This document shows, piece by piece, positions 2,891 to 59,826 of a stretch of DNA of 64,000 nt. The position numbers were made by a program, and so were the translations under genes. Each line of letters begins with the position of its first letter. Position 1 is the stretch's first letter. Below the pieces are notes generated by a model, which ran no database searches, was not told where the DNA came from, and saw nothing but the letters and a program-made list of their open reading frames with translations. The DNA is taken from positions 960,001 to 1,024,000 of the forward strand of contig CM000433.1 in the NCBI GenBank assembly GCA_000165345.1, written 5' to 3'.

Positions 2891-2910
2891 CCGCCCAAAT
2901 GTGGCGGGAG
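2891..2910. promoter_or_regulatory. E2F-like GC box pair (ccgcccaaatgtggcgggag) in the divergent promoter of the small minus-strand gene and the proteasome beta-5 gene
   Basis: A CCGCCC / GGCGGGA inverted pair in otherwise AT-rich DNA, about 290 bp upstream of the PSMB5 start. Confidence 0.5.
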
Positions 2911-3200
2911 TTTTTGGGGGGTGTTTTGGAGAAATGTAATAATAAATTGATATTAATAATAATTGTATAGTAATTAAATAAGTAAAAATTGAGGATATTT
3001 GTTTAATTGTTAAACATTGTGAGTTTGAAGAAAGGTTAAAAGAAAGGGAGGAACAAGTTGTTTTTTTTAAAGAATAACAAAAGAATAGTTTATAACTTAA
3101 TTCAAGCCAATTGTGTTAAAGATTGCAAAATAGTTTGTTATATTGCATTACTTTTCTGTTAATTTTTTTCGTAAATAATCCATACAAGTTTGTAAAAAAA

Positions 3201-4073
3201 ATGACTTTTGATTTTTTGGATTCAGGCATTGAAGCAATCAACCACTATGGAATAAGAAATGAGAATTTGAAAAATTCAGGATTTTTAAGATTGGATTTCT
3301 TTGGAAATGATAAAGATGAAGAAGATTTTGTGGAAAGAATATATGAAGAAACTTTTCAATATGCAAAGATTGAAAATCCATGTAAATTTGTAAGTGAATA
3401 TAATAAAGGAGAGATCAGAAAGATGATGAATAGAGGTACTACAACATTAGGATTCATTTATCAAGGAGGAGTAATATTAGCAGTTGATAGTAGAGCATCA
3501 CAAGGAAGTTATATTGCAAGTCAAGAAGTGAAAAAGATTATTCAGATTAATGATTTCTTATTAGGAACTATGGCAGGAGGTGCAGCAGATTGTTCATATT
3601 GGGAAAGAGTACTTTCAAAGTTATGTAGACTTTATGAACTTAGAAATGGAGAAAGAATTAGTGTAGCGGGAGCTTCGAAGATGATCACCAATATATTCTT
3701 CCATTATAGAGCTTATGATCTTTCTGCAGGAATTATGATTGCAGGATTTGATAAAGATGGTCCTCATCTGTATTATGTAGATAATGAAGGATCTAGAGTA
3801 AAAGATTGTAAATTTTCTGTTGGATCAGGTTCTTTATATGCTTATGGTGTTTTAGACAGTGGGTATAGATATGATTTAACTGATGAAGAAGCTATTGATC
3901 TTGGAAAGAGAGCTATTGTAATTGCAACAAACAGAGATGGTGGTTCAGGAGGTCTTGTTAGAGTTTATCAAATAAATAAAAATGGTGTTATTAAGCATGT
4001 ACCAGGAGAAGATGTTTCTGAACTTCATTATGCATACTCTAAAAAACAAGGCACTGATCCAACAAAAATGTAA
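3201..4073 (+). CDS. PSMB5: 20S proteasome subunit beta type-5 (PSMB5/Pre2-like, chymotrypsin-like catalytic subunit)
   Basis: Propeptide followed by the catalytic TTTLGF start. Near-collinear matches to beta-5: GVILAVDSRASQGSYIASQEVKKIIQIN, LLGTMAGGAADCSYWERVL, ELRNGERISVAGASK, LYYVDNEGSRV, FSVGSGSLYAYGVLD, and EDVSELHYAY at the C-terminus. The ORF opens at 3123, but the Met at 3201 (MTFDF) is the more plausible start. Confidence 0.9.
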   Translation: MTFDFLDSGIEAINHYGIRNENLKNSGFLRLDFFGNDKDEEDFVERIYEETFQYAKIENPCKFVSEYNKGEIRKMMNRGTTTLGFIYQGGVILAVDSRASQGSYIASQEVKKIIQINDFLLGTMAGGAADCSYWERVLSKLCRLYELRNGERISVAGASKMITNIFFHYRAYDLSAGIMIAGFDKDGPHLYYVDNEGSRVKDCKFSVGSGSLYAYGVLDSGYRYDLTDEEAIDLGKRAIVIATNRDGGSGGLVRVYQINKNGVIKHVPGEDVSELHYAYSKKQGTDPTKM

Positions 4074-4399
4074 TTTTATCTTTTTTTTCAATATGTGAAA
4101 GTATATATTATTGATTTCAATAACTTAGTAAATATTTCAACTTTTTCTAGCTAAATCAAACAATTAATATTGTTTAATATATTTATTTACATAATTACGT
4201 GTCAGAATTTAGATTTTAACTATAATATCTATTAGATATATATTTATATATCTAATAGACATTTGCATGTATACTAATTAAACTCTGTTCTGATCCTAAT
4301 GTTTGATTTAAAACAATTCTAAATAGTAAATTATTCCATTAGATAACAAATTATTAGTATTTATTTGTTAAGATTTTTTTTTTCCAAGTGTGAGAATGA

Positions 4400-4417
4400 C
4401 ATGCATGCATGCATGCA
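4400..4417. repeat. (CATG)4-5 microsatellite, an overlapping GCATGCA concatemer
   Basis: catgcatgcatgcatgca seen directly in the 630 bp convergent 3' region between PSMB5 and the HAD-like gene. A T19 homopolymer lies nearby at about 4561-4580. Confidence 0.8.
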
Positions 4418-4704
4418 AAACTTAAAAATGATTTTAATAAAATACAAATTAAACAAAACTCAATAATAGCTTATCCTAGCATACTGAAATATATGAAACA
4501 ATAATTCAAGGCTGAAAATATTCATTAATCTACAATTTTCTCTGGCATTGATTATTTTGATTTTTTTTTTTTTTTTTTGTTTTTTTCCTAATCTTATTAG
4601 GCCTAAAGTTAACTAAATATAACTGCATTTCCTATAATACCTTCCTTATTAAGAAACCTGCTAATAAATAAACCCATAAATTAAATTAATATCAATAAAA
4701 TGAA

Positions 4705-6180
4705 TTATTCATCTTCGGTAGAATAATCTTCAAATATATTCATTGTCTCAGAATTAAATGGTTGGCCACTTTCAATAATAATAGAAGAAACAGTATTACT
4801 ATAATTAATCCATGAATGTGATGAGTTTCTTTTTCTTTCAATTTCTATTGCATTTGAGATTGCTTGAAGTTGAGTAATAAAAGCTTTTGGAGAAAGTCCT
4901 GAAGAACATCTAATAATTTTTGAATATCTAACAGCTTTATCAACAACAGCTAAATGAACTGCAGCACATTCTTCAAAATCATTATCGCCAATACTAATCA
5001 AATCTAATTTAATATTGTCTATATTTGAAGTCCATCTAGTTACAATCTTCTCAAATTCAAATTTTTTGGCCAACATCCAATAATTAAAGTACTTTTCTCC
5101 ATCTTCAATATCTGGTTCTTGACCAATAGGATTAGTTCGAATGATCTGAATTCCTAATTCGTTTAAAGCATTACTTAGTTCTGGAAACATAGTATCAACA
5201 ACTTTAAGCCATCCAGTAGATCTTGCATTTGTAACAATTGCTACATCTAAGAACATATTTTTAGCATAACTTAAGATTCGAATAATACTTGGTATTAATT
5301 GGTAATTGACTTGCTGATCAATCTGCATCCTTATATATTGATAGACATTATTAGAAGAATTTGAGAATAAATAGCTCAATGCAGGATTTTGTCTAATCTT
5401 AGTATAAGTGTCTCTAATCCAATCTGTTGGAATTAATGTATCATCAAGATCAAATATTGCAATAGTATTTTTTTGATAAGTATTAGTATTCAAATTATTA
5501 TGATTAGCAAAGATATTTAAATTATCATAATTATATCTATATCCATAACTTTGAATATTCTGAGTAATTTTCATTAGATTCAAACCTCCTCTTTGAGTTT
5601 GATTATTAGGTATTTGTTTAACTAAAACTGCACTTTCTTGATTAGTTTTTAAATGACATCCTAATTTTGTTTCACTCTTATTTGATTCATAATTGGAGGA
5701 TGATTCAGATTTTTGCCCTAATCCAGATACTAAACCTAGGCTTGTGCTTGGACCTAGAATTGTTCCAGCTCCTATTCCTGCTCCTGTTCCTATTCCTGCT
5801 CCTGTTCCTATTATTGCTCCTGTTCCTATTACTGCCCCTGTTCCTGCTCCTAACTCAGATCTTGCAGTCTCTAATGATGAAGAATTTGGATTTGAATTAT
5901 ATTCAATATTCCTTCCCGGAATTGAATATTCACCTTTAGTTTTTAAATGAGTAGCATTTAATGTTGCATAATTTGAAATATCGCCTTGAGCTCCTAAAGA
6001 TGAATTACTATTTGAATGAATTCTGCTTTGAGAATTATTTAATGTTTCAAATCCTTGATCTTTGCTTGGAGAATTTTGGTTTTGTGCAAATATTAAACCA
6101 CGTTTAAACGTATGTATTGGTGAACAAAGGCTAGCTAAGTCTATAATAGCCATCTTATTTGAATTATTTCTATCTTTCAA
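4705..6180 (-). CDS. HAD-superfamily phosphatase-like protein (possibly MDP-1-like) with a long N-terminal low-complexity region and an internal Gly/Thr/Ala/Ile repeat
   Basis: HAD motif I FDLDDTLIPTDW (compare MDP-1 FDLDYTLWPFW) and a motif IV-like ISIGDNDFE. A GAGTGAVIGTGAIIGTGAGIGTGAGIG stretch is encoded by a tandem 18-nt repeat. Confidence 0.45.
   Translation of the reverse strand: MKDRNNSNKMAIIDLASLCSPIHTFKRGLIFAQNQNSPSKDQGFETLNNSQSRIHSNSNSSLGAQGDISNYATLNATHLKTKGEYSIPGRNIEYNSNPNSSSLETARSELGAGTGAVIGTGAIIGTGAGIGTGAGIGAGTILGPSTSLGLVSGLGQKSESSSNYESNKSETKLGCHLKTNQESAVLVKQIPNNQTQRGGLNLMKITQNIQSYGYRYNYDNLNIFANHNNLNTNTYQKNTIAIFDLDDTLIPTDWIRDTYTKIRQNPALSYLFSNSSNNVYQYIRMQIDQQVNYQLIPSIIRILSYAKNMFLDVAIVTNARSTGWLKVVDTMFPELSNALNELGIQIIRTNPIGQEPDIEDGEKYFNYWMLAKKFEFEKIVTRWTSNIDNIKLDLISIGDNDFEECAAVHLAVVDKAVRYSKIIRCSSGLSPKAFITQLQAISNAIEIERKRNSSHSWINYSNTVSSIIIESGQPFNSETMNIFEDYSTEDE
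5772..5852. repeat. Imperfect tandem 18-nt minisatellite (cctattcctgctcctgtt, 4 copies plus a partial one) inside the HAD-like CDS
   Basis: Directly visible on the plus strand. On the minus strand it encodes a (G-T/A-G-A/I) repeat; in the plus frame it reads (PAPVPI)n. Confidence 0.85.
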
Positions 6181-7321
6181 AATTTATTATTATTATTATT
6201 ACCTTATCCAACTGACAATATAGTAGTAATATATTGAATACTTATTGTGAAAAAAAGTTATTTAATTTAATGACTTTTTAATTGATATTGTAATTCTATA
6301 AATTTGTAGAAAATTGTCATTACTTAATTAGACCAAGAAATAAATCTTTAGATTATTGACTTCCCAAACAAATATCTAAACTCAATATTTTTTTTCAGTT
6401 TTAAACTCGCAAATAGATGAATGAAATTTATTTTGCAATGAAATTTATCTATGAAAATATAATATATTATTTAGAATTGGCTTATTTTGACGCTTATCTT
6501 AATAGATCTTATTAGAAATTCTAAATTATATGCTTTTTAATTCTCTATTCTCTTTTCAGACTTTTATATTATTTGATATTTTCATGATATATCTATTGTT
6601 AGTTATTTTACTTATACCTAAATTATCGTCTAATCTTTTTGACATGTTACCACCTGGGTGCACATTGCTGGCGCCAAAATGATTCTCGGAGAACACTGAG
6701 TGTTTTTGCATATATTACACCCTTGATATAAAAAATCGTTTAATTAAATATTTGATTTTATTTAATTATTTTAATTTTAAAGCTACTTTAAAAATTTATA
6801 TTAATATATGATATTTTAGCCAAAAAATGATTGAAAACTATATTAATCTCTGGGGGTGAAACTGGGAGGAAAAAAAAGCACTAATTAAATTTCCTTTTTT
6901 TTAATTTTTGTTTAACAGCTAAATGCTAATTATCACAATAATTACTTAAATTTTCGTCATTATTGTTGTTAGTTGCAATGATATTTACTATTTAATCATT
7001 TGAAGAATATTTATTTACTCATTTCCTGTCAAATAATTAATTTTCTATTTAGAGCTTTATTTTATTTTTCCATGCATTACATGCAAATGCATGCAACCAA
7101 ACACGTCATACATGCAAATTTGTTATTGTTTTTATTGTCCACATTGAATTGAAAGATTTGTGGAAAAAATGATTAAATCAATTAAGAGAAAAATTTGGCA
7201 ATTGATTTATAAACATTTTTTTTATTATAGTATAACAATAATCCTTACTAACAGTAATACACCACTGGATAAATCTATATCAATAACTCCACATATTTAT
7301 TGGATTAATGCTATAATATTA

Positions 7322-10300
7322 CTATTTAAGTTCAACATTAATTACACCATCAGCAAATTCAACAGGCTTCTCTAAGCCGGCTTTATTATTACTGATGTCT
7401 ATTTGACCAATTTTTCGGTTGAAGGCAAAATCATGGCTCTTACTTGGGAATAAATGAATTTTTGGTGGTACACATCCGTGAATAATAAATGTACTTGCAA
7501 GAAATGCCATAATATGCCATATTGAATGGAAAAACCAATAAGTGTCCACAGTTTCAAGAAACCAAGTAATACAACCAATGGTGCCCATAATAAATCCAAT
7601 TAAAATATGTCTAGGTGAGTAATATTCACGATCAAAAATGAAAATAAGTTTCTTATAACCGTTAATAATGGAATATTGTAAGCGAGTAAAAAAATGATTT
7701 GCATTACGAACTGTTGAATTTAAATTCCGAGCAGAATTTGGATTCTGAGCAACATCATCAACTGAAGCAATATCATCAACTTTTGAAATATTAAACTGAG
7801 ATGCAGAAGAATTTTTCTGACAATCTTTACAAGCGCTAATGCAATTTGAAGAATTTTGTGGAGATTTTTTCAATTCTTCGCTATTATTTGAATTATTGTT
7901 ATCTTTTGAAATTAAATTGGTTGGAGTATTTAATGTATTTGTCAACTCAATGGGAATTGTACACGAAATATTTGATGGGATCTTTTCACTATATAATTTT
8001 GTGGTACTATACCAATAAATTATTCTTGAAAGTAGAATTGTAAAACAATTCATTAATGGAATTACTGTTGTTACTAGTCTTGAAGTTAATAAAGTAAGAA
8101 GAACTAAAACAATTATCTGTGCGAATAATAATGAAATCTCAACTTTATAATTAAATCTGCAAAGTAATATAAATACAAAAGAAATAATAAGCTGAGCTGA
8201 AATTAAATCACCTTTTAAAAGCATATCTTCATGATCAACAAGTAAACCAACTTCTGCAGCATGAAATATTGATGATATTAATCCTGCAATAAAAGCTAAA
8301 AAGGCTACTAGCCATTTCTTCTTAAATATGCATACCAGAATTGTTGGAATTGCAACAAAATTCGTTCCCACTAATGTTATTGGATAAGCTAATATTGATT
8401 GACTTGATAAATATGGATATGAACAATAAAATCCACCCCATCCAGGATAGCACGAACAATAAATATTAATATTTCCCGAATATTCTACTAAAGAACAATC
8501 TCCATGTCCTGAACATGTTGATGCTTTACACATTTTTGGTATCATCTGATGCTTCAATCTAATATTTATTGATTTTATTGGAATATTCTCCGTTGGTTTA
8601 ATATCTGTCTTAATATTGATCTTAAAAGCAAATGGAAGATTATTATTAATTGTTGATAGTGGTATTGAAATATTTGCTATCTGTATTATTGAATTATCAA
8701 TTATTTTGGGTTCTGAAGCTGTATTAAAGATTTTCGTCTCTTTTAATTCATAATCTTTTATTAAATTATAATTATTCTCATTATATACTGGAAATCTTCC
8801 AAGTAATCCAATATAATCAATGATCAGTGAGCAATTATATCTATCAAATAAATACAATAATTCATTACTTATATATAAAAACAAATTATTACTTTCAAAA
8901 GAAAGAATATTTGTTTTTGTTTTTGGTATTACAATATAAAATGGTTCATTCAATTTAACATTCATATCCAAATTTTCACTCTCTATCATTCTTGGCATAG
9001 TTTCCAATTTATAATTTGGATCTACTCTTGTTGTTAACCACTTTACTATGAATGGATCTCCTGTTAATTGTGTATAATTCAAATCATAAAAGAATTTCAT
9101 ATTAAAACTATTTATATTACTATTCTCAGATATCCCCATATCTATGTTTGATCTGGTATTATATTGGAAAAGAAATGGATAAATGAAATATTTTGATGGT
9201 TTTATATTATTTAAAATTAAATTTACTTTGATCATCTTTGGATCATTTTTATTATTATTTTCACCACTATCATTTCTTACCAGTTTCATTGATATTGAAT
9301 CAACATTACTTCTAAGTTGTGGAGGAAGATTCTCATTCTTTATTAAATTATCTGATAATTCATTCTTTAAATCAATACATATATTTGGTGAAAATGGTGA
9401 ATTTAAATGATCATTTATTAATGGTATTGATGCTAATGAATCTTTAATGTTCGAATTTGTTTCTTTTTTATCAAATGTTAATTGGTTATTCTTATTTATT
9501 TTATCCAATAATTCATCATTCCAATAATATGGTGATAAGTAAATGCAAAAATTATGTGAAATATTATCAATTAATTCATTATTCATATCTTTTTTATTAT
9601 TATTTATTTCACCAATCTGAATCGAAAATTGTAATACTGCATTACATATTGTAACAAAGTCATTCTCTAATATACAAACTGGAGTTGAAAATATCTTCAA
9701 GTTATTTAATGGTAAATTATTGCTATTAATCATACTTTTACCTGAATCTTTTATATTATCTTTTTTATTATTAATTGGACCAGTTAAGCTATATTCTGAA
9801 GATGGAGAAAGAGTCATAATTTCATTATTATTATATTCCACCAAACATCCAATACTTAAAATTACGTATTGTGAAGAACAAGGACAATAATGTCTTCTTG
9901 TAAATTCTATATCAACATCGCCAATATAAATATCAATATTATAAGCATTATTATCTAATAGTGGGAAATTACATAGAGGAAGTTTTCTACCAAATATTGT
10001 TCCTTTATTAATTCCACTTGGAATATCAATTCTAGTATCATAATTATAAGGTGTTGCCAAATTTCCGCATCTCAAAAAAATCGTAAATCCTTGAGTTAAT
10101 GTACTTTCAATAATTTTTATCTCTAATTCTGGATATATAAATGAATTTGGAGTTGTTACTGAAAAATGGTAATTATCACATAAGTATAACTTTTTTGTAG
10201 GCATCCATGTAATTTTTGGTCCTATTGTATTCTTTTCCTTTATATTATTATTATTACTACTTTTAATTCCACCTCTATTCGTATTTTTCGCTAATTCGTT

Positions 10301-10411
10301 ATATTCTTTTATTGAAATAAAGTCCTCACATGGAATCTCCTTAGATATTAATAATATTATTAAAAATATAAATTCAACCAATAATTTTCTGTGTAATATA
10401 ACTTTATTCAT
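7322..10411 (-). CDS. Large secreted/membrane protein: signal peptide, about 600 aa N-glycosylation-rich ectodomain, EGF-like module, C-terminal 7-TM region (TMEM8/PGAP6-like, CREST-type putative hydrolase)
   Basis: Hydrophobic N-terminal leader. EGF-like Cys pattern CKASTCSGHGDCSLVEYSGNINIYCSCYPGWGGFYCS is followed immediately by multiple TM helices with conserved His/Asp (HAAEVG, HILIGFIMGTIGC, WHIMAFLASTFIIHG). This matches the TMEM8/DUF3522 architecture. Confidence 0.45.
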   Translation of the reverse strand: MNKVILHRKLLVEFIFLIILLISKEIPCEDFISIKEYNELAKNTNRGGIKSSNNNNIKEKNTIGPKITWMPTKKLYLCDNYHFSVTTPNSFIYPELEIKIIESTLTQGFTIFLRCGNLATPYNYDTRIDIPSGINKGTIFGRKLPLCNFPLLDNNAYNIDIYIGDVDIEFTRRHYCPCSSQYVILSIGCLVEYNNNEIMTLSPSSEYSLTGPINNKKDNIKDSGKSMINSNNLPLNNLKIFSTPVCILENDFVTICNAVLQFSIQIGEINNNKKDMNNELIDNISHNFCIYLSPYYWNDELLDKINKNNQLTFDKKETNSNIKDSLASIPLINDHLNSPFSPNICIDLKNELSDNLIKNENLPPQLRSNVDSISMKLVRNDSGENNNKNDPKMIKVNLILNNIKPSKYFIYPFLFQYNTRSNIDMGISENSNINSFNMKFFYDLNYTQLTGDPFIVKWLTTRVDPNYKLETMPRMIESENLDMNVKLNEPFYIVIPKTKTNILSFESNNLFLYISNELLYLFDRYNCSLIIDYIGLLGRFPVYNENNYNLIKDYELKETKIFNTASEPKIIDNSIIQIANISIPLSTINNNLPFAFKINIKTDIKPTENIPIKSINIRLKHQMIPKMCKASTCSGHGDCSLVEYSGNINIYCSCYPGWGGFYCSYPYLSSQSILAYPITLVGTNFVAIPTILVCIFKKKWLVAFLAFIAGLISSIFHAAEVGLLVDHEDMLLKGDLISAQLIISFVFILLCRFNYKVEISLLFAQIIVLVLLTLLTSRLVTTVIPLMNCFTILLSRIIYWYSTTKLYSEKIPSNISCTIPIELTNTLNTPTNLISKDNNNSNNSEELKKSPQNSSNCISACKDCQKNSSASQFNISKVDDIASVDDVAQNPNSARNLNSTVRNANHFFTRLQYSIINGYKKLIFIFDREYYSPRHILIGFIMGTIGCITWFLETVDTYWFFHSIWHIMAFLASTFIIHGCVPPKIHLFPSKSHDFAFNRKIGQIDISNNKAGLEKPVEFADGVINVELK

Positions 10412-11290
10412 TATTTCTTAAGGTTTGCTTACTCAGATTATTTAAAAATATATTTAATATATAGGCATATTTAAATTAAGTATTTGTCAACGCATTACAT
10501 ATATTAATATTTATCAATTTAAAATTAGTTTACCACACACACTCAATTTCTGTATTAGAATATAAAAACCATTTATTCTTCCTGGAAAAATATGAACTGA
10601 AATATTTTAAGTTCTGATGACTTGAGATAACAGTTCCAAAATACAGAGTAAATGTTTACTCCATGAGATTTATTTATGTTGAATAATTTTTTTTATTTCT
10701 TGAAATTTAAAAAAAAAAAAATGCATTTACTTTAACTTTGACANTTATTATGTTATAATAATTTAANATTAACTAATTTATAGTTCCCGCCATATGTTTT
10801 ATTTTTTATTTAAATATTAAAAAAAATAGATGACTAAATTATAATTAATATGGATATTTATAAAAAAAAAAAAAAAATAAATAATAATTCCCCACAATAA
10901 CTAAATTTGTCTAATTTTATTAATTTTGAGTTTTTAATGATTTCTGTATTATAATTCTTTCACACATTTTTAGATCTAAGTTTTTTCACACAAATTTCTA
11001 TTACATGCAATCTTTCAACCAATTAATAAATAAGAATTCCTTCAAAAATTGGTTTTAATGAGATAATTTAGAATATTTTCATTATAATTAATTAAAATTA
11101 TTATAAATTAATGTTTCTACTTATTGAAATGATTACTAATAACTGCCTAAATTATTAAATTGAAATATATAATATATATGTATATTTATTTATCTTTAAT
11201 TTGAAAATCGGAGTTTAAATTAAACCTGTAATTATAAAATATATTTGAGAACAAAATATTTCTATTACTAATAATAGAAATATATTTCTC

Positions 11291-11599: not shown

Positions 11600-11643
11600 T
11601 TTGAAGATTACTATTATNGGTTATTATTAATATTACTTTTCNN
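11538..11643. other. Low-quality segment with scattered N bases that disrupt a CDS
   Basis: N at 11538, 11580, 11584, 11618 and 11642-11643. Confidence 0.9.
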
Positions 11644-14331: not shown

Positions 14332-15425
14332 TCAAATAATAAACAATGTGGACAAAAAAATAAACAAACATAATAATTAATTTCAGAGAAAAAAACAAAT
14401 GAGAAAATAATAGCGCATTAGCATAGAATAGCTAATAAATAAATTTTGCTAGAGCATTTTCATTATTAAAGAAAAATTAAAGAAAAAAAAAATTAACATA
14501 TAAATTTATAAATAATGAAATTAATTTTTCAAAGACTTTCTTTAACCTTCCCCCCCCTCAGCATCCCCCCACCCATCAAATAATTTGTATAATACCACTA
14601 AAAAAAAGGCAAGATACGTAATTTGCCCGCCTAAAATTCCCCACATTTCTTAAATATTTTATATAATTTGGAGTAGTTAATGGAAATAAATATTTAATAA
14701 TAATTTTAATTTATTAACTTATAAATATACTTGAAAATTTACTAAATTATATCTGGGATGAGGGGCAATATCTCCCTACATTCCGTGGAATTTACGTACT
14801 TAGTTGTCTATTTCGCTTTGTAGACGTCTACAAATTAATATATAGGATAAAATAAATAGAAAAATAAATAGAAGTTAATTGCACCTGCTCCACTAGTATT
14901 GCAATCTGCATGTGCACTAGATGAATAATGGGTAACTTGGTGGATATATTAAATTTGCTGCTATTTAATAAATAGGGGGAGTATAATTAATATTAATGAA
15001 ATTTTTTTTTTAAATTTTGCAATAAAATAGTTTGAAAAAAATATTCATATTAAGGCTAATTTTCATTAGAAAAACTACAAAAAAAAAAAAAGAGATTTTC
15101 TTTTCTTCCATATAATTTAGGGATATATAATAGCCAATATTACCTTTGGAAGTTGGTTAATTGACAATTTTAAGTGGTTTTTGTAACAATATTCTCGGCT
15201 TTAATTACATTGTTGTGTTGACGACATTGATCAAAATAACAGAGAAAATTAATTAATTATATTAGACATTAATATAGTAAAACCTATTTATATTACTATA
15301 TTATCTTCAAATTAAGGCTAATTTCTAAAAATTAAACCAAATATTTACACAGAACTTATAACATATATACATGTTATACTAAGAATTACTTTAAGCTTAT
15401 ATATACCAAAGTTAATTTATAATTA

Positions 15426-20066: not shown

Positions 20067-20086
20067 GGCGCCAAAATCTTGGCGCC
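20067..20086. promoter_or_regulatory. Paired GGCGCC palindromes (ggcgccaaaatcttggcgcc) about 330 bp upstream of UTP18
   Basis: Seen directly. GGCGCCAAA is an E2F-like motif class. Confidence 0.45.
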
Positions 20087-20144
20087 TATTGAAATTAAAA
20101 TTGGCTGAAAATGGAAATGCATGTGCAAAGAGTAATAATGTGAA

Positions 20145-21737: not shown

Positions 21738-21785
21738 TTAGGGAAAAAAAAAATTTATTTTTTTCTTGGTAAATTTATTTCATAT

Positions 21786-21817
21786 ACCGGTACTAAGGTA
21801 CCGGTGCATGGCGCCAT
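21786..21817. promoter_or_regulatory. Perfect 8-bp-arm inverted repeat accggtac-taag-gtaccggt followed by the palindrome atggcgccat, in a divergent promoter
   Basis: Seen directly between the divergently transcribed genes 20145..21737 (minus) and 21932..23416 (plus). Confidence 0.45.
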
Positions 21818-21931
21818 TCCCCACATCCCAATGCACACGGGGAAAAATGACAATTTTTTTTTTTTAATGAATAAAAATTAATTAATTAACTATTATTCAA
21901 TAAAGGCAGATAACTGAGTAATAATGGACAA

Positions 21932-27444: not shown

Positions 27445-27457
27445 TTTCCCGCCAAAA
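27445..27457. promoter_or_regulatory. Canonical E2F site TTTCCCGCCAAAA in the ERCC6 / 27858-gene divergent promoter
   Basis: Exact reverse complement of TTTTGGCGGGAAA. Confidence 0.5.
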
Positions 27458-31540: not shown

Positions 31541-32064
31541 AAAAAGAGACCAATAATTACTAAAATTTATTCATTTTGAGGTCATTAATAGTCAATTAAA
31601 AGATGAAGTTCCAACTTACTATAAGTATAATTTGGTTAATAAAAAAATTTCAAAAATGAAAGAAATCAAGGTTAATAAAACAGAAGTTGTTTCTCTAAAA
31701 GAGTTTCAAATATAAAAAGTTGACTGATTGTCCATTATTTTGGGCAATTTCTTTTTTTTATTTCCCCACAGTTTGCTTACCTTATTAATAGTAAAAAATT
31801 CCTATTTTCAGAAATTTCTGGATATATACAAATCTGATTGTAGTTCATGATTTCAAGTTTATTTCATGTTCTATATCGCCATATTATCTTTAATTCAAGC
31901 AAATAATTTGAAAAAAAAAATTATATTTTATATTCAGAAATTGCATTTCTGCATACATGAATTTTTATTATTAGTGCAACGTTGATAAAATTAAAAAAAA
32001 AAAAAATATGAAAACTACCCGCCAAACCACCTCTTAAAAATTGTTATTTGAAAATAATTAATTA

Positions 32065-32586: not shown

Positions 32587-32588
32587 AA

Positions 32589-32651
32589 TTTGGCGCCAAG
32601 CCCTATTTCTTTTTTGTTTAAATGGCCATGCTATTAAACTCATTGGCGCCA
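32589..32651. promoter_or_regulatory. Two TTGGCGCCA motifs in the 170 bp spacer between frataxin and the METTL10-like gene
   Basis: tttggcgccaag and cattggcgccacg seen directly. Confidence 0.45.
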
Positions 32652-34008: not shown

Positions 34009-34029
34009 ACTCACATACCGCGCCAAAAA
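34009..34029. promoter_or_regulatory. Quasi-palindromic ccgcgccaaaaatatggcgcc in a divergent promoter
   Basis: Seen directly between 33554..33916 (minus) and 34155..37325 (plus). Confidence 0.45.
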
Positions 34030-34154
34030 TATGGCGCCTACCGGCATTAACTTTTTCAATATAGTCAAAATTTACATTTGGTTGAAAAAATATTCATAAG
34101 AACGGCATAAGAAAGAGTAGTTTTCGTCAAGAAAAGCTTTCAAACTTTGGGGAA

Positions 34155-37866: not shown

Positions 37867-37887
37867 GTTCCCGCCCAAAGTTCCCGC
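37867..37887. promoter_or_regulatory. Tandem GTTCCCGCC-type E2F half-sites about 100 bp upstream of the CDCA7-like zinc-finger gene
   Basis: gttcccgcccaaagttcccgc seen directly. Confidence 0.45.
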
Positions 37888-42082: not shown

Positions 42083-42541
42083 AAAAAAAGTCAATCATTT
42101 AACTTTTCTCAATAAACTTCATCATTTCCATGATTATTGCCTTAAATTAGCTATTTAAGTAATTAACTTCTTTTTTAATTTCTAAATCCATGGTTTTTTC
42201 ACCTTTCTTTCTCCCTATCCCCTACTTCCCCTCTCACTGATTCCTCACTTTACTGATATCTACGAGTTTCTCACATAAGAATTCAATTAAACTGCACAAA
42301 TCATGTGGGATCTGGGTATGGAAGATAAAAAAATCTTTAATTCTTTCTCAACCATAATTCTCCCAATACTTTAATTTCCCCATATTGAAATTCATAATAT
42401 TAATGTTTTGGCGCCTACACACAACTTTTTTTTTTCTTTTCAAAAGATTTTTTAAATAAAAGAATACAACTTATAAAATAGTTGCTTAAAATATATCTAC
42501 TTTAAAAATATTTGTAGAACTAGTAGCAAATAGTTCTGAAT

Positions 42542-45801: not shown

Positions 45802-47133
45802 TTAAACTTTAAGAATATTTATTATATTTTTTTTCTTCTCTTTAAATTGATACAAAAGTCAATAAAGTGATAAAATGGAAGAATATATCAAGAATGGAAA
45901 TATCGTAATTTTAAGAAGCGCATAAAAGTCATTATTTGAATACATTTTTTTTGCATTTCATGAATTTTTAACAATTTTCCCTCAATAACAATTTGAGTAT
46001 ATGCAGTTGATTAATTTTCGATTACGAAAAAATACGAGTTAATAAACGGAGGGAAAAGAAAAGTAAAAATGGGAATAATTGAAAATTTGTCCCACAAAGT
46101 TTAACATGTACGAATAATCCACATGAAAATTACTTAATAAATTATATGAATTAAAAACTTTTAGTAGAAATAAAATTTATTATAAAAGTTGAAAATGTGT
46201 TTAATAAATATTATAGAAAGAATTAACAAGATTTCTTGAGAAGCTTTAATAAGAAGTGAAATAGGGAATTATGTTTTAGGGGGTTTGATATATTTATTTA
46301 TTTTAATGATAAGATTTAGTAGAAAAATGAGAAAAAAAAAATCAAATATGTAGAAGCAACAATTATTAATATTTGGATGAGGTGATGATTGGGGGAAAAA
46401 AATCATCTAATTTACAAACTCATATTGATGAATCTTTTAATTAATCATTATTAGTATTTTTTAGAAGTGCATTTATTAAATTATTTGCATACGTGTATTA
46501 GCGTTATTAAGTACCGGCAAGTGGGGCTTCCACATAAGTGCATGTTTTGGGCGCCAAATGCATGTAAGTACATTTTGACGGTGCAATAGAAAATAGAATC
46601 AAAATAGGTTCCACTCAAATTCGAGATTTTTTTTAATTTATAAACAAAGGTGGGAAATAAAAGAAGTCATGTATAAGGTTATATATATTTACAGGTGAAA
46701 TATAATAAATTATTAATACATTAGGTAATGCTAGAAAAAAGTATTAAAAAATTGTAAAATGCCAAAAAAAATTGGTGGAGAGACTGAAATATTAAGGCTA
46801 AAAGAAAGGAGAGTAATATAAATAATAAATAAAAAAGATTAAAAACAATAATAGAAGTAATAATAATATTTGAAGAAAAAATTTGGTTGAGGAATATAAT
46901 TAAAAGAAAGAAAGTGATTGGAAGGAGATAATCTCTAATTAATTTTGGAGATTATTATTTTAATTATTACTATTGTTATTTATTTTCTTCCAAGCTTGTT
47001 AACAAAAAAAGTTAATATTAAATTGGAATGGAAATTAGGATTAATAAAATATTAGAACAGAGAAGAAAGAATAATGTAATAATAGGAAATAAAAGTAAGA
47101 AAGTTTTATCAATTACTAGAAAGGATTAAAAGA

Positions 47134-49524: not shown

Positions 49525-50187
49525 AAATAATCACTCACAATTATCATCAAATTTTGTGTTTTGGTCATCTATTAATTATTTCTAAATTAATTTTAATGGG
49601 TAACTAAATGTAAAAATAAGACTAATCTAATGCAGCCAATCAAGAAATATTCATTCGTGCTTAAATTTTATATTGGTCAATCTTAAAAATGTGATAATTT
49701 TACTATTGTTAATGAAATATTAATTTATAATTATAGAGATTTTCATTATGGCTTTATATACTAATGCTTCAAGTAAGATATTAATTATGTAAATGCATGT
49801 AGAGCAGCAATTCATATGGAAATTTCATGTTTTATTGAAAATAATGTTTTTGAGAAAAAGTATTAATGCAGTTTTAAGCTTCTTCATAATGGCTATGGTT
49901 AGAAATTATTTTATTATTCAAATTAGAGATGGCGGGTTCATTATAAATAATACCGGGTACCTAATATTCTGAATCATTTTAATAAATATAACTAATGCTT
50001 TCCTTTTTATAAAAAAAAGAAGAGAAAGAATTTAATATTAAGTAAAATAATTTAAAAGTACAATATAAATAAAAAAGTTGAATTTGAATTTGACTTGAAA
50101 TAAATAAAAGTAAGAGCTTAGAGGATCATTTGGAAAAGTGCATTGATTTTTAAGAGAATTACTAATAGACTGGGTAATAAGTAAATA

Positions 50188-53236: not shown

Positions 53237-53714
53237 TTTTTTTTTTGTAATTCTTATGAATTTTATAGAATTTCACTCTGTTAATAAATCTCAAAAAGAT
53301 ATTTTTATTATTTAGAAAAACATAAAATAAATTTATCCTATATTCCACTTGGTTTATTATTCAAGCTTAAAGTAACCTCTAATAAGCCAATTATATTGTA
53401 TTGTATTATCTTTTATATAGGTAATGTGAAAGATTAATAATATTGACTTTTTTGAAATAAAATTAAAATATATATTTCCAAGTTAAACTCCAGCTACCAA
53501 GTCCTCCAACTTCTAATCTTCTAAAAGTTTCTCTCTCAAAATTTGAAAATCTTTTTTTTCTTTTCTTCCTTTTTAGTTTATTTTTGACATTTTAATTATA
53601 AATAATTTCCCAGAAGCCCGCCCAAACTGAAAAATGCTATACCGGTGACAACTAATAATTTTTTTTTTGTGGAAAACAGATCAAAATTGACCAAAAATTT
53701 AGGAAAAATAAAAT

Positions 53715-55519: not shown

Positions 55520-58500
55520 TTACCTTGTTTCATTAAAAGTTGCATTCTTTAAAATAGATTGTAGTTTCTGAGTTTGTATAGGTTTCAAGGATTCTGATAT
55601 TAGAATATCATTTGAAAGATTATGAGAACTATTCATTGATGATGATGATGATTGGGACTCATTAAATATTTGTACATGAGAATTTTTGTTATTGTTCTGA
55701 CTACTCTTGTAGTCATTATCATGATCACTTAAACGTGACAAATATTTATTATTGGAAGAATTGTTATTAACCAAAGTCCAGAACAAATTTGTTGAAGATG
55801 GACACATACAAGTATTTAAATTCTGAGATAAGTTACTTAAGTTCTTTTTACCAAAAGAAATAGCAACTTCATTACTAACTTGTTTTAAACAGTATAATGA
55901 TGAAAATGAACTTGTAATTTGGTTAGCTCCCAAAACTTGTTTATTTGGATCATTTGAATAGGAAATAATACTTTGAACAGTCTTTGAAATCTGTGATAAA
56001 GTAGAAACTGGATTACTTTTTTGATTATCATTATTTATTTGACTATCTTTATCAGTCTTAAGGAACATCTTTTCAATAGATTTTTGAATATCATTAATAT
56101 CAGTAGTTTCATATTCATCAGTAAATTCTTTATTAGTAGATAAAGAATCATCAATAACCATTTCAGTATTTTCTAATGATTGTTTATTAATATCTTGTAG
56201 AACTTGTGAAATAATTTCACCAGATGTATCCAAAGCTCGTATTTCTTGAATATAAATGTCATAACTGGATAACAAAAGCACTAAATATATAGAGATTTTT
56301 GTGTTTTCAACTTTAAATTGAATAATAGCATCCTTAACAGATGTTTCTTCAAATAAATCAATCTCAATATCTTCCAAACATTTAATTTGTTCAAGTTTAG
56401 ATTTGGATTTAGTACTTTTTACAAATTGATAAAGAGAAATAAGTGCTTTTTGTTTTGTATTTTTAACAATAGCAAATTGAAATGGGATTTCTTCTTTTAA
56501 GAATTGGGTAAAATGACCATAATCTTGTATATTAATAAGCTTGGAATCAGAATTAAGTTGAATATTCTCTTGATGAATTAACTCCATGGAAGTAATATTC
56601 CATATAAAAAGCTTTCCAGAAGAAGGAGAAATTCCTAATAGATAATATTCATGATTATGCATAACAATAAGCATTTGAGTAATTTGAGCTCCTTTAACAG
56701 ATAAATAACCAATATCACTTTCAAGTAGAATTGAATATTGTTTATTCCAATTATATACTATAATACCTTTAGATGAAGCCAAGAAAAGCTTATTAAATGC
56801 ATGACTAAAACAAGTAGAATAAATTTCAATTTCAGATTCTGGATGAATAATTGATGAATTGACCCATTCTTTAATTTGATTTTTATAAATCCAACATTTA
56901 ATTTCACGTTTACAAGTAATTGTTATAAAACATGTATTATTATCTTTATTAATATCATGATTATCATTTTCATATAATATATGATCAGATTCTGCTTCTT
57001 CTATTGAAACAACTTGGTCAATATGAGCAATAGGATAGTTAGATACTAATTCAAATTGTGTTTTATCTTTAGAAAGAAGAATTTTCCAAAATTTAAGATT
57101 ATATGCTCTCTTTTCATCATTAAAATGATCAAATTTTTGACTTTCAATAGTAATAGCAGATTTTGAATTCTTTGAATAATATGCATCAATTAATACAACT
57201 CTAGTAATATCATCTTGTACAAGCTTTGATGAAGAAATTCCATCTCCAACTTTTGAAACATAACTTTCTTCAGGCTTACAAAGAATACTAGAATGCCATA
57301 CATCTTTAATAAGATCATGAATATGCAACTTGAATGGATGAGAAATAATGGATACTAAAAGCTTTGTAGGATTCAAGAATTGAGATCCTAGAATTTTGAT
57401 TTTAGGATAATCCATAATACTACCTTTAATTGCATTGAATGGAGTAGAAATACCATATATAGTATTTAAGATTTTATTATGTACTAGATCAATAATTTTA
57501 ATACTGTTATCAGAGCATACAATAGCTGCTATTAATGAAGGTAAAGTATTAGAACCAGATACTTGAGTATAATCATGATTTTGAGTATCCATACAAACTT
57601 TTTCTTTTCTAAATGATGTAATATTATATATAGGAGCTCCCAATCTAGGAATAAATTGTCTAGTACCATTATTATTTGGATTTTTGTAATGATTTCTGGT
57701 ATGAATCAGATAAGAATCTGAAGAGAAAGTTTGCCTCCATAATACTAGAACAGCTTCTTCTCCACCTGATAATATAGTATCTGTACCAGGTATAATATTT
57801 AAAGAATTTAATTCATGTGAATGCCAGTGAGATATTGATGTTTTAACATTATATTTATAGATCATTTTTTCAATATCAGAATTTTCAGAAATGGAAGGAG
57901 CATTTTTCCACATTTGTATACCTTCTTTTGATGAAGAAGGAGGAATAAACCAATAAGTTAACCTACCATAAGCATCACCAGTAGCAACAAATTGTTGATC
58001 TTCAGAAAGTGTAAGCGATAGAATATATTCGGAATGTCTAAAACGAATAATTTTATCAGGGTATTGAGTATTCCAAATAATTAAGATATTTTTCCATATA
58101 AAACAGAATAAAGACTCATCCGAAGATACTTGGAAATTTAAAGCTCCATATGAGAAGTTAATAATCTTTTTGAGAGATTTTTGAATAAATTTGGAATGAT
58201 TAGATTTTTGATTAACAGAAGTATTAAATTTTGAAATTATATCAGAAATGGGAATTTTATATAAGGAAACATTAGTATCAATCAAAGTATCTTGATCTTT
58301 TGCTTCACTTATGATAAAATATATATTGTTTTTTGCAACTTTCAAATCAATAATACATCGACCAATTTCAATCTCTATTACAGACTTCTTTTCTTTATGA
58401 TTTAAGATATCATTTAAATGAAAAATTCGTATTAAACCACTAACAGTTGTAGTAACAATAAATTCCTCATTTTGATCAGACTTTATCACACCAAGACCTG

Positions 58501-58717
58501 TGATAATTTCTTTTGAAGCAGAAAATTGAGATTTAGACTCTCCATTTCCCAAAGTATCATATACATAAATTTCGTTATCTCTTCCTTTTGGGATTAATAA
58601 TAAATTCCCATTATTGCAAAACACTGGTGGTACTTTTAGAGAAAAGCATCCTCCTTTGTAACCTTTATTCATCTCTTCTCCTTTTCCATAAAAGACTAAT
58701 AATACCAATCTATACAA
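55520..58717 (-). CDS. Large WD40-repeat protein, 1065 aa, possibly UTP17/WDR75-like nucleolar t-UTP
   Basis: Multiple WD-like repeats. The N-terminal pattern GGCFSLKVPPVFCNNGNLLL...IYVYDT...ITG resembles the WDR75 N-terminus. The UTP17 label is low confidence; coding status is high. Confidence 0.35.
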   Translation of the reverse strand: MYRLVLLVFYGKGEEMNKGYKGGCFSLKVPPVFCNNGNLLLIPKGRDNEIYVYDTLGNGESKSQFSASKEIITGLGVIKSDQNEEFIVTTTVSGLIRIFHLNDILNHKEKKSVIEIEIGRCIIDLKVAKNNIYFIISEAKDQDTLIDTNVSLYKIPISDIISKFNTSVNQKSNHSKFIQKSLKKIINFSYGALNFQVSSDESLFCFIWKNILIIWNTQYPDKIIRFRHSEYILSLTLSEDQQFVATGDAYGRLTYWFIPPSSSKEGIQMWKNAPSISENSDIEKMIYKYNVKTSISHWHSHELNSLNIIPGTDTILSGGEEAVLVLWRQTFSSDSYLIHTRNHYKNPNNNGTRQFIPRLGAPIYNITSFRKEKVCMDTQNHDYTQVSGSNTLPSLIAAIVCSDNSIKIIDLVHNKILNTIYGISTPFNAIKGSIMDYPKIKILGSQFLNPTKLLVSIISHPFKLHIHDLIKDVWHSSILCKPEESYVSKVGDGISSSKLVQDDITRVVLIDAYYSKNSKSAITIESQKFDHFNDEKRAYNLKFWKILLSKDKTQFELVSNYPIAHIDQVVSIEEAESDHILYENDNHDINKDNNTCFITITCKREIKCWIYKNQIKEWVNSSIIHPESEIEIYSTCFSHAFNKLFLASSKGIIVYNWNKQYSILLESDIGYLSVKGAQITQMLIVMHNHEYYLLGISPSSGKLFIWNITSMELIHQENIQLNSDSKLINIQDYGHFTQFLKEEIPFQFAIVKNTKQKALISLYQFVKSTKSKSKLEQIKCLEDIEIDLFEETSVKDAIIQFKVENTKISIYLVLLLSSYDIYIQEIRALDTSGEIISQVLQDINKQSLENTEMVIDDSLSTNKEFTDEYETTDINDIQKSIEKMFLKTDKDSQINNDNQKSNPVSTLSQISKTVQSIISYSNDPNKQVLGANQITSSFSSLYCLKQVSNEVAISFGKKNLSNLSQNLNTCMCPSSTNLFWTLVNNNSSNNKYLSRLSDHDNDYKSSQNNNKNSHVQIFNESQSSSSSMNSSHNLSNDILISESLKPIQTQKLQSILKNATFNETR

Positions 58718-58846
58718 GAGAATAGAAGAGTAATACTATCTCTATTAAGTATATATATATGTATATATATTAATGTATGTTTTCTCTTGCCTTGTTACCT
58801 TTTCTTGGTCTGTCTAACTTTGACTCCTTTTTAGGCACTTTCAAGA

Positions 58847-58877
58847 GGCGCCATAGCTGCGCCAAATTTTGCCCGCC
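58847..58877. promoter_or_regulatory. GC motif cluster (GGCGCC, GCGCCAAA, GCCCGCC) in the 160 bp spacer upstream of the large WD40 gene and downstream of TK
   Basis: ggcgccatagctgcgccaaattttgcccgcc seen directly. Confidence 0.45.
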
Positions 58878-59465
58878 TTAGAAATTGTATTCTTCACAAT
58901 TAATTATATGATGTTTTCTGCATACAGAAGTATAAATAGAATTGTCACCAATAAGAATTTGTTCGCCAGAAAAAACAGGTTCTCCATTGCTATTTAATCT
59001 GATAGTCATGGTAGCTTTTTTGCCACAGCGACAAATAGTTTTGATTTCAGTAAGTTTATCAGCCCATGCTAATAAGTATTTACTTCCTTCAAATAAATTT
59101 CCCTTAAAGTCTGTTCTCAAACCATAGCATAGTACTGGAATATTTAGCTTATCAACAACAATGCATAATTCTCTAACTTGGAATTTCGTTAGGAATTGGC
59201 TTTCATCAACTAGAACACAATCAATTTTTTCCTTATTATTTTCTTGATTAATAATATCAAGTAGTTTTAAATCAGGAGTGAATGTGTGTGCTTTTTCTGA
59301 GAGACCAATTCTAGAGCAAATTGAGCCTTCTTCAAATCGGCAATCTTTGCTAATTGTAAAGAGAATGGTTTTCATTCCTCTTTCTTGGTAGTTGAATGAG
59401 GATTGAAGAAGAACCGTTGATTTTCCAGCATTCATTGCTGAATAGTAAAAGTATAATTTTGCCAT
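58878..59465 (-). CDS. TK: Thymidine kinase, bacterial (gamma-proteobacterial Tdk) type
   Basis: Near-identity to E. coli Tdk along its whole length: [78 protein letters not shown], and the zinc-ribbon CRCGKKAT...VCRKHH. Confidence 0.9.
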
Positions 59466-59826
59466 TTTATTAAAGTATTTCCAATCTTATTTGCAGTAGG
59501 TATGAGTGATATTATTGCTTTAAAGTATTTATTAGGTAAATTGTTGAATTCTTTGTGTTAGATGGTTTAAAATTTTGTTTTGAGTGATTAATAAAAATAA
59601 ATTTAATTTATTTTTACTTTATGAGTAGTTATTTAATCTCAATTTAGCCTCAAATTTATTACTTGAGAAAAGTGGTTACCTATATATAGATATTAAAAGG
59701 CGCCAAAAGGGTTCATTTTCAGATACTTGAAATGTAAATTGATATTATTATATAAGAGTGGGATTTCGAGTAGAATATATGTTTTTGGTGTGATAATGCT
59801 TTTTAACTTGAGTTTGATAAGAAATT

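Follow-up and report, generated by a model that had tools for sequence, protein, structure and literature searches.

E2F-DP dimers of animals and plants recognise the canonical site TTTSSCGC, and the structure of an E2F4-DP2-DNA complex is known (Zheng et al. 1999, cited in PMC3734150). In Arabidopsis the commonest E2F sites are TTTCCCGCC and TTTGGCGGG (Oberstaller 2013, PMC3734150). Cryptosporidium alone among the apicomplexans studied retains E2F/DP (PMC3734150, PMC12246861). A review lists the E2F genes cgd1_1560 and cgd6_1430 and the DP genes cgd7_3650 and cgd8_1850, and states that experimental confirmation exists for very few of the putative regulatory components (PMC12246861). An Rb orthologue is absent from Cryptosporidium and most known E2F partner proteins are missing (PMC3734150); its regulatory logic may therefore differ from that of canonical E2F. 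An E2F-like upstream motif was first reported in this genus by Bankier et al. 2003 for chromosome 6. Oberstaller 2013 defined motif 3 as [C/G]GCGC[G/C], with the consensus TGGCGCCA, and motif 4 as GGCGGG, and found the E2F-like motif to be the most over-represented upstream motif of the genome (PMC3734150). It stands upstream of 161 of 200 co-expression clusters (Oberstaller 2014, PMC4117751), and the array-tested AP2 domains of C. parvum bind TGCAT, CACACA and the G-box, not the E2F-like motif (PMC4117751). E2F is also the top motif of sporozoite ATAC-seq open-chromatin peaks genome-wide, of which more than half are bidirectional promoters (Xiao 2025, 10.1101/2025.01.17.633476).

The boxes in the window, the whole 64-kb stretch of DNA analysed here, are this published E2F-type promoter motif (Bankier 2003; Oberstaller 2013, 2014; Xiao 2025), as the earlier note had said in assigning them to the E2F/DP-type family reported for Cryptosporidium. 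They share with that family an SGCGCS or GGCGGG core flanked by T and A, an upstream location, occurrence before most genes regardless of function, and presence both in bidirectional promoters and in spacers within tandem gene pairs. Nothing essential differs, and the window is a local instance. We consider it probable, at about 0.8, that the boxes are E2F/DP-type cis-regulatory sites marking the promoter regions of a compact C. parvum segment. The species follows from sequence identity (99.85-99.98% against NCBI assemblies; the frataxin protein matches that of Iowa II exactly) and not from the motif, which is genus-wide; the motif had been offered as evidence for the species assignment, and it serves for the genus Cryptosporidium but not for the species. 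The boxes have the core SSCGCS, and the full form is TTTSSCGC or the palindrome TTTGGCGCCAAA. All 17 ranges listed in the earlier note hold the sequences quoted for them. The sites are as follows, in window coordinates.

2891..2910: inverted pair CCGCCCAAATGTGGCGGGAG with a distance of 13 bp between its CG cores, in the spacer from which a 111-aa ORF (2009-2344, minus strand) and a proteasome subunit gene (3201-4073, plus strand) diverge; both halves are kept in C. ubiquitum.
6670..6680: GGCGCCAAAAT, 525 bp upstream of the ATG of a 482-aa gene (4705-6153, minus); the C. ubiquitum counterpart is TTGGCGCC, with the ATG about 514 bp away.
10784..10791: TTCCCGCC (on the gene strand GGCGGGAA), 382 bp upstream of a DUF3522 gene (7322-10411, minus); the gene-strand form is kept in C. 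ubiquitum.
14625..14631: GCCCGCC, in a 1467-bp divergent spacer between a CH-domain gene (minus) and an 865-aa gene (plus), ATGs at 675 and 800 bp; C. ubiquitum has GGCGGGC at 651 and 837 bp.
20067..20086: tandem GGCGCCAAAATCTTGGCGCC with a core spacing of 14 bp, located 340-353 bp upstream of UTP18 (18260-19735, minus); the C. ubiquitum equivalent is two GGCGCC cores, 16 bp apart, in the same position.
21808..21817: palindrome ATGGCGCCAT, in a 194-bp divergent spacer (21738-21931), 80 and 122 bp from the ATGs; identical in C. ubiquitum, with GGCGCCAA at the equivalent place in C. canis.
27445..27457: TTTCCCGCCAAAA, which matches the E2F consensus in full, in a divergent spacer with an SNF2 gene (minus) on one side and a 694-aa gene (plus) on the other, 463 and 413 bp from the ATGs; TTTCCCGCC is 100% conserved in five species.
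32018..32026: CCCGCCAAA, 47 bp upstream of the frataxin ATG, in a spacer divergent with a 476-aa gene; chipmunk genotype I, C. ubiquitum and C. canis keep it, with the ATG 44-49 bp away, and C. felis has ACCGCC instead.
32589..32651: two boxes separated by 53 bp, TTTGGCGCCAAG (3 bp past the frataxin stop) and TTGGCGCCA, which lie 170 and 114 bp ahead of a methyltransferase gene (32759-33442, plus); both are conserved in four species.
34017..34038: tandem CGCGCCAAAAATATGGCGCC, cores 14 bp apart, in a 247-bp divergent spacer between a 117-aa gene (minus) and a 1056-aa gene (plus); conserved in five species.
37867..37887: a direct tandem, GTTCCCGCCCAAAGTTCCCGC, of period 13 bp, located 118 bp upstream of a 1364-aa gene (37988-42082, plus); chipmunk genotype I, C. 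ubiquitum and C. canis have CCCGCC tandems of 12-13 bp spacing, with the ATG 107-123 bp away, and C. felis has ACCGCC variants.
42407..42416: TTTGGCGCCT, 135 bp upstream of an S9 peptidase gene (42542-44974, plus); conserved in four other species.
46545..46559: TTTTGGGCGCCAAAT with GCATG on each side, in a 1332-bp divergent spacer, ATGs at 757 and 588 bp.
49928..49936: GATGGCGGG (other strand CCCGCCATC), 257 bp upstream of ArgRS (50188-52038, plus); chipmunk genotype I, C. ubiquitum and C. canis keep CCCGCCAT, with the ATG 224-257 bp away.
53616..53626: GCCCGCCCAAA, in the spacer from which an Efg1-like gene (minus, ATG at 390 bp) and Trm11 (plus, ATG at 119 bp) diverge; the block CACCGGTATAG..TTTGGGCGGGC is kept in four species, and GGCGGGC is found in C. 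felis, C. bovis and C. ryanae.
58847..58877: three cores GGCGCC..TGCGCCAAA..GCCCGCC, 11 and 14 bp apart, abutting the TK stop codon, 182-207 bp upstream of a WDR75-like gene (55520-58672, minus) in a TK-WDR75 spacer of 205 bp; boxes stand at an equal place in all seven species examined.
59699..59708: GGCGCCAAAA, in a 361-bp divergent spacer between TK (minus) and a large gene (59827 onwards, plus), ATGs at 242 and 128 bp; TTTTTGGCGGGC lies 105-123 bp from the ATG of the large gene in chipmunk genotype I, C. ubiquitum and C. canis.

The names TK, frataxin, ArgRS and Trm11 agree with Pfam, and UTP18 with a PDB match (7mq8_LS, E = 1.5e-47).

The boxes of the window fit the E2F consensus, either as TTTSSCGC or as an SGCGCS or SSCGCS core, and the palindromic forms are TTTGGCGCCAAG (32589), TTTTGGGCGCCAAAT (46545) and ATGGCGCCAT (21808). 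Like the canonical animal and plant site, they combine a 6-bp CG-rich symmetric core with a T-rich flank and are promoter-proximal and often paired. Judging from the literature, two E2F and two DP winged-helix proteins would bind them as heterodimers and in this way maintain access to the spacer and drive transcription, and in the nine divergent spacers a single cluster could serve both genes. The window has 27 gene models, and no match to the Pfam E2F or DP families was found among them. It is also conceivable, although we consider it unlikely, that another factor reads the boxes, namely a GC-box-binding C2H2 zinc-finger protein, a Myb/SANT protein or an ApiAP2 domain beyond those tested on arrays. 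The variants GCCCGCCC and CCGCCC at 2891, 37870 and 53616, which we take to resemble the GC box, speak for such a factor. So does the statement, in the review, that E2F/DP binding has never been demonstrated (PMC12246861), and we found no report of E2F-DP binding by EMSA, protein-binding array or ChIP for Cryptosporidium. However, the commonest form is the GGCGCC palindrome with T- and A-rich flanks (TTTGGCGCCAAA), which is an E2F-DP site and not a GC box. The array-tested AP2 domains bind different motifs (PMC4117751), and the sole apicomplexan genus that keeps E2F/DP is the genus with this motif upstream of most genes (PMC3734150, PMC12246861).

The earlier note placed a box at nearly every promoter, and indeed all 17 start-facing true intergenic regions, nine of them divergent, carry one to three cores, with one cluster per spacer. 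All 20 non-coding GGCGCC or GGCGGG cores are in spacers with at least one gene 5' end, and none of the nine convergent (3'-3') spacers contains a core, which indicates that the box tracks gene starts and not gene ends. This is the location expected of an E2F/DP site, upstream and not coding or 3'. Upstream spacers with a box are present for 26 of the 27 gene models. The remaining gene is truncated where the window begins, and its ORF is still open at base 1. The candidate promoter map drawn up earlier holds, but its 17 regions serve 26 gene models and not about 17 genes. Likewise, the upstream position was correct but the range of 50-400 bp was too narrow, as the distance from box to nearest ATG is 47-800 bp and exceeds 400 bp for 10 of the 26 genes. 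Several boxes are 500-800 bp from the nearest ATG, and we count this, together with the missing Rb orthologue and partner proteins and the few coding matches given below, against the E2F/DP reading. Pairing, which had also been claimed, occurs in six regions with at least two cores, spaced by 11-14 bp in five of the six.

Alternatively, the main role of the boxes might not be that of activator sites: between closely packed genes they could form boundaries, terminate transcription or exclude nucleosomes, or they could be internal signals of polycistronic transcripts. Where tandem spacers are short, the boxes start 0-3 bp past the upstream stop (frataxin 32589, TK 58877), a placement kept in other species, and the motif occurs in internal spacers of 160 of 201 polycistronic transcripts (Xiao 2025, 10.1101/2025.01.17.633476). 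Against this, the absence of cores from the nine convergent spacers compares with about 3.7 expected by length from the core density in start-facing spacers (P(0) ~0.025). In long tandem spacers the box lies far from the upstream stop, for example 545 bp at 37870. Nucleosome exclusion could go together with E2F/DP binding and is no substitute for it, and we regard the boundary explanation as very improbable.

The set of genes differs from that of the canonical system. In animals and plants E2F-DP sites control genes of the cell cycle and of DNA replication, which are regulated through the Rb family, whereas in the window a box precedes all 26 testable genes in 64 kb, including housekeeping genes with no S-phase link. 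The box-bearing upstream spacers belong to proteasome, tRNA synthetase, rRNA processing, frataxin, TK, peptidase and kinase genes, and no restriction to cell cycle, DNA replication or nucleotide metabolism was found. Boxes before genes of every kind suggest a near-universal promoter element and not a cell-cycle-specific switch.

Sixteen of the 17 regions, all but the 46545-46559 cluster, were compared with one to four other Cryptosporidium species, and four loci were covered in 4-6 species by pattern scan. All boxes of the 16 regions are conserved in at least one other species, mostly at equal distance from the ATG. Ten spacers were aligned, each from 4-5 species counting C. parvum itself; identity was 84% in box columns and 53% in other spacer columns (Mann-Whitney p = 4e-25, with columns that are not independent). 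The boxes of six further spacers are conserved in C. ubiquitum, and distances to the ATG are kept across species at frataxin (44-49 bp) and the 1364-aa gene (107-123 bp). Box columns, C. ubiquitum spacers and ATG distances alike bear the purifying selection expected of a functional site. Our data show that purifying selection across Cryptosporidium holds box sequence and position while the adjoining spacer has diverged. Placement facing gene starts, together with this conservation, fits a promoter element. The boxes mark promoter regions, as had been proposed, but the wording "core promoter" is stronger than the data show.

The cores are far more frequent than in shuffled sequence. With dinucleotide-preserving shuffles, 12 GGCGCC (0.28 expected), 14 GGCGGG (0.78) and 11 TTTSSCGC (0.75; 9 of the 11 intergenic) were observed, counts equalled in none of the shuffles. 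When each intergenic region was shuffled separately, 21 SSCGCS cores were observed against 0.91 expected, and 17 regions with at least one core against 0.86. SSCGCS density is 1.54/kb in intergenic and 0.18/kb in coding DNA (binomial p = 1.5e-8). The earlier note had named equal frequency in coding or shuffled intergenic sequence as the sign that the motif was spurious; the result was an 8.6-fold intergenic excess over coding and the excess over shuffled spacers just given. GGCGCCA ranks first among intergenic 7-mers in an unbiased k-mer ranking. It has 15 intergenic copies and GCGCCAAA has 8, and neither has a coding copy. Among G/C-only hexamers in the window, the only ones frequent in intergenic DNA are GGCGCC, CCCGCC and the known G-box CCCCCC. 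Coding sequence holds a few full-consensus matches (1065, 17660, 40637) with no evident role. An origin by chance or AT-rich base composition, for which we found no supporting point, is refuted by counts 15 to 40 times the dinucleotide-shuffle expectation that no shuffle reached, by the scarcity or absence of the remaining G/C-only hexamers, by an enrichment that opposes the GC gradient (intergenic 23%, coding 29%) and by conservation of the boxes in species whose loci span 26% to 46% GC.

The ApiAP2 motif TGCATGCA (AP2_1) is likewise over-represented in the intergenic DNA of the window (11 GCATGCA against 0.48 expected) and flanks the box at 46545-46559. It differs in sequence and in its binding protein family, which is another one and experimentally supported (PMC4117751). 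Unlike the E2F-like box, it is frequent in coding DNA (12 copies) and also occurs at 4402-4417 in a convergent spacer, and so does not track gene starts.

Gene regulation is poorly understood in Cryptosporidium, to which much childhood diarrhoea is due. The window yields no new principle and illustrates a published claim site by site. As conserved islands within diverged spacers, the boxes offer a practical means of delimiting promoters, for example in transgene design. Short, well-defined cases for proof of E2F/DP binding are the TK-WDR75 spacer of 205 bp and the divergent spacers of 194 and 361 bp. We suggest tentatively, as a possibility that we hold to be somewhat doubtful, that the E2F-type box is the general promoter-defining module of the genus and not a regulon switch, with one cluster per promoter, 1-3 cores, 11-14 bp spacing and a (T)ACCGG(T) companion. 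E2F/DP might then have been taken over as a general promoter-opening factor in an Rb-less genome, with a cluster often shared by two divergent genes and a spacing that would resemble a helical turn. The idea of a general promoter module has been suggested in print before (PMC3734150; 10.1101/2025.01.17.633476); if true, the new part would be the fixed architecture and the companion motif. The passages of the earlier papers cited here do not mention box-by-box positional conservation (up to seven species), the 11-14 bp spacing or the ACCGG companion.

The companion motif ACCGG was observed beside the boxes; on the reading just suggested, (T)ACCGG(T) would be a second element, apparently undescribed, at 4-40 bp from the clusters in the C. 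parvum / C. ubiquitum lineage. Beside the palindrome at 21808, flanking copies of TACCGG lie at 21785-21804.

An E2F-like box lies upstream of 26 of the 27 gene models in the window, and the 27th is cut by the window start. The 17 coordinate ranges listed in an earlier note all contain the sequences quoted for them. The window has 17 start-facing spacers, each containing at least one gene 5′ end, and nine convergent 3′–3′ spacers. All 20 non-coding GGCGCC/GGCGGG cores are placed in start-facing spacers and none in the nine convergent ones; with a relaxed core, every one of the 17 start-facing spacers carries one to three, and convergent spacers carry none. Two regions appeared to be spacers without a box. 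At 1–192 the reading frame stays open up to base 1, and the orthologue in C. ubiquitum is longer, with 737 aa compared with 548 aa here. At 63118–63554, a run of N (63119–63157) interrupts the large gene after thymidine kinase (TK), which is a single ORF of 1545–1681 aa in six other species and 1096 aa here. The count of 26 of 27 therefore holds, because neither region is a spacer. The nine divergent spacers, among them the 361-bp TK spacer and the 194-bp spacer at 21738–21931, mostly have one cluster for two genes, and in the shortest tandem spacers (frataxin, TK) the cluster starts 0–3 bp past the stop codon of the upstream gene. By eye, no consistent orientation of asymmetric cores relative to the downstream gene was seen. 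The observation that nearly every promoter carries such a box is confirmed and its E2F-like interpretation supported, with three corrections to the earlier note: the distance to the ATG is 47–800 bp rather than 50–400 bp, the 17 regions serve 26 genes rather than about 17, and the motif identifies the genus Cryptosporidium but not the species.

Gene models were ATG-to-stop ORFs of at least 100 aa and were checked against gene calls of related assemblies. Models from the window alone are wrong at two places, the large gene after TK and the CH-domain gene (794 aa here compared with 875–886 aa in orthologues; scattered N at 11538–11643), because N bases split these genes into shorter ORFs. The window has a G+C content of 27.7%, with long ORFs tightly packed on both strands, and at 99.85–99.98% identity it matches Cryptosporidium assemblies at NCBI, such as GCA_015245375.1 (record CP044418.1, about 736–757 kb; the segment as a whole lies at about 736–800 kb of this record). 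Its frataxin protein has 100% identity to a protein named for C. parvum Iowa II. The names TK, frataxin, ArgRS and Trm11 given earlier agree with Pfam, and UTP18 is backed by the human SSU-processome chain 7mq8_LS, which it matches at E = 1.5e-47. A search of the long spacers for ncRNA found no tRNA genes and no Rfam family matches. The thymidine kinase gene of Cryptosporidium is of bacterial origin by horizontal transfer. The best matches of the TK in the window (58878–59465) after Cryptosporidium orthologues are all gammaproteobacterial (Tatumella, Serratia, Providencia and Vibrio; 60–65% identity), which fits this origin. Despite these matches, the TK upstream spacer has a conserved E2F-like box.

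The boxes are strongly enriched, and none of the dinucleotide-preserving shuffles of the window matched the observed counts.

Counts of box motifs in the window, with expectations from dinucleotide-preserving shuffles of the window
GGCGCC: observed 12, expected 0.28
GGCGGG / CCCGCC: observed 14, expected 0.78
TTTSSCGC (textbook E2F consensus): observed 11, expected 0.75

When each spacer was shuffled separately, 21 SSCGCS cores were observed in spacers against 0.91 expected, and 17 spacers had at least one core against 0.86 expected. The frequency in coding sequence is not equal, as it would be if the earlier claim were wrong: cores occur at 1.54 per kb in spacers and 0.18 per kb in coding DNA (p = 1.5e-8). 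The GC content runs opposite to core density, being lower in spacers (23%) than in coding DNA (29%). An unbiased k-mer scan ranked GGCGCCA first among spacer 7-mers, with 15 copies in spacers and none in 50 kb of coding DNA. The only G/C-only hexamers frequent in spacers are GGCGCC, CCCGCC and the known G-box CCCCCC, and the boxes account for about a quarter of CpG dinucleotides in spacers (25 of 97). Boxes are still kept in C. canis loci with 43–46% GC, which argues against a compositional effect. Some matches lie in coding sequence:

1065–1074, full-consensus E2F-like match, GGCGGGAAAA
17660–17669, full-consensus E2F-like match, GGCGGGAAAT
40613–40645, E2F-like pair, CCCGCC..GGCGCCCAAAA

Coding matches were considered as candidate internal promoters. 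At 40613/40637, conservation of the pair is only partial and was seen in chipmunk genotype I and C. ubiquitum; the SNF2 coding matches at 23781–23792 are kept as coding sequence in all species compared.

The boxes are conserved across the genus. Orthologous DNA was compared for the TK region (chipmunk genotype I, C. ubiquitum, C. canis, C. felis, C. bovis and C. ryanae), the frataxin region (chipmunk genotype I, C. ubiquitum, C. canis and C. felis) and the region of the CH-domain gene (C. ubiquitum), covering the clusters other than that at 46545. Boxes recur at equivalent places, and their distance from the ATG often changes little between species. In four species CCCGCCAA is found 44–49 bp upstream of frataxin, and four species have two CCCGCC copies in tandem 107–123 bp upstream of the 1364-aa gene; boxes immediately past the TK stop codon are present in all seven species. 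The box sequence takes forms such as TTTGGCGCCAAA and TTTCCCGCC, the latter identical across five species in the SNF2 spacer. All six spacers in the left third of the window are conserved in C. ubiquitum. In MAFFT alignments of ten spacers, identity to C. parvum was 84% in box columns and 53% in other spacer columns (p = 4e-25, which overstates the significance because columns are not independent); the contrast is large and consistent.

In C. felis, the alignment shows ACCGCC in place of the CCCGCC of other species at two separate promoters (TTTTACCGCCAC, TTACCGCCCTAACATACCGC), and TTACCGCC is a C. felis box variant. The ACCGCC form could reflect a weaker site that is still tolerated, or a slight change of binding preference in this lineage.

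C. felis record L014, about 9950, ACCGCC variant, aligned to window 32018
C. felis record L014, about 15760, ACCGCC variant, aligned to window 37870

Between the boxes at the TK stop codon and the WDR75-like gene lies a stretch of about 90 bp (about 58765–58845, equivalent to 10620–10700 of record L001; AAAGTGCCTAAAAAGGAGTCAAAGTTAGACAGACCAAG...AAGGCAAGAGAAAAC) that is conserved as far as C. felis, far above typical spacer DNA. This stretch has no Rfam match and could be the TK 3′ UTR, the WDR75 5′ UTR or another element.

The E2F-like box is already known, and the box family in the window is exactly the published C. parvum motif, as the earlier note had proposed. The motif was first noticed on chromosome 6 (Bankier 2003). 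Oberstaller 2013 lists it as motif 3, [C/G]GCGC[G/C], and motif 4, GGCGGG, gives TGGCGCCA as the summary consensus, and finds the motif especially over-represented across upstream regions (PMC3734150). Of 200 co-expression clusters, 161 are reported to have it upstream (PMC4117751). Sporozoite ATAC-seq peaks, over half of them bidirectional promoters, are reported to show it as their most prominent motif, and 160 of 201 polycistronic transcripts contain it in their internal spacers (10.1101/2025.01.17.633476). Enrichment, placement and conservation are demonstrated directly in the present analysis, whereas we infer that E2F–DP heterodimers bind the boxes; once bound, they would hold the short spacer in an accessible state and drive transcription that is often bidirectional. 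This is the best-supported mechanism because of the published motif identity, the retention of two E2F (cgd1_1560, cgd6_1430) and two DP genes (cgd7_3650, cgd8_1850) in Cryptosporidium, described as the only studied apicomplexan genus to keep them (PMC12246861), and the binding of other motifs by the AP2 domains tested on arrays (PMC4117751). A 2025 review stresses that the E2F/DP components lack experimental validation (PMC12246861). Reading of the boxes by a different factor is unlikely, as E2F–DP is the best fit to a palindrome flanked by T and A. A pure boundary or 3′-end role is more improbable still, being contradicted by the convergent spacers, whose lack of any core is the ground for rejecting a 3′-end or terminator element. 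Chance and composition are excluded by the window and per-spacer dinucleotide shuffles, the second-order Markov expectation and the other G/C-only hexamers. With E2F–DP as the preferred reader, the boxes work like an E2F site but define no cell-cycle regulon, because they are present before all kinds of genes and Rb is absent from Cryptosporidium (PMC3734150).

The tandem spacing of cores, an ACCGG companion motif and the C. felis ACCGCC variants may be new. In five of the six spacers with more than one core, tandem cores are 11–14 bp apart, centre to centre, and that many such spacings appeared in none of 20,000 random placements. The cores concerned are as follows:

2892/2905, tandem cores
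20069/20083, tandem cores
34021/34035, tandem cores
37872/37885, tandem cores
58849/58860/58874, tandem cores

Orthologous core pairs in other species are spaced 12–16 bp apart. Judged from sequence, this spacing suggests that two factor dimers may lie side by side on the DNA. A (T)ACCGG(T) companion motif adjoins the boxes:

21785–21804, (T)ACCGG(T)
34039–34044, (T)ACCGG(T)
46512–46517, (T)ACCGG(T)
49951–49956, (T)ACCGG(T)
53640–53645, (T)ACCGG(T)
orthologous record L006, 15785 and 19446, (T)ACCGG(T)
orthologous record L012, 15828, (T)ACCGG(T)

Within 60 bp of cores no 5-mer is more enriched than ACCGG, which has eight copies there compared with none in the remaining 11.3 kb of spacer sequence (p = 7e-8), and all seven intergenic copies of TACCGG lie 4–40 bp from a core. 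In the Trm11/Efg1 spacer, the block CACCGGTATAG is 23 bp from the box in four species. The association of ACCGG with cores is also seen in C. ubiquitum (7 vs 0, p = 3e-6), but only weakly in chipmunk genotype I and C. canis and not at all in C. felis, C. bovis or C. ryanae. The companion may resemble the site recognised by Reb1 in yeast, TTACCCGG. Oberstaller 2013 (PMC3734150) does not contain the string CCGG in its main text, and a literature search for an ACCGG companion in Cryptosporidium yielded nothing relevant.

Known motifs also occur away from start-facing spacers. At 30248–30294 and 62541–62572 in coding DNA, TACCGGTATT is followed within 10–24 bp by the ApiAP2 motif TGCATGCA, and these pairs could be internal or antisense promoters. 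At 4402–4417, the run TGCATGCATGCATGCA consists of three overlapping copies of the ApiAP2 motif AP2_1. The convergent spacer that holds it is 631 bp long and separates the proteasome subunit gene from the 482-aa gene; no other strong known motif was found in any convergent spacer.
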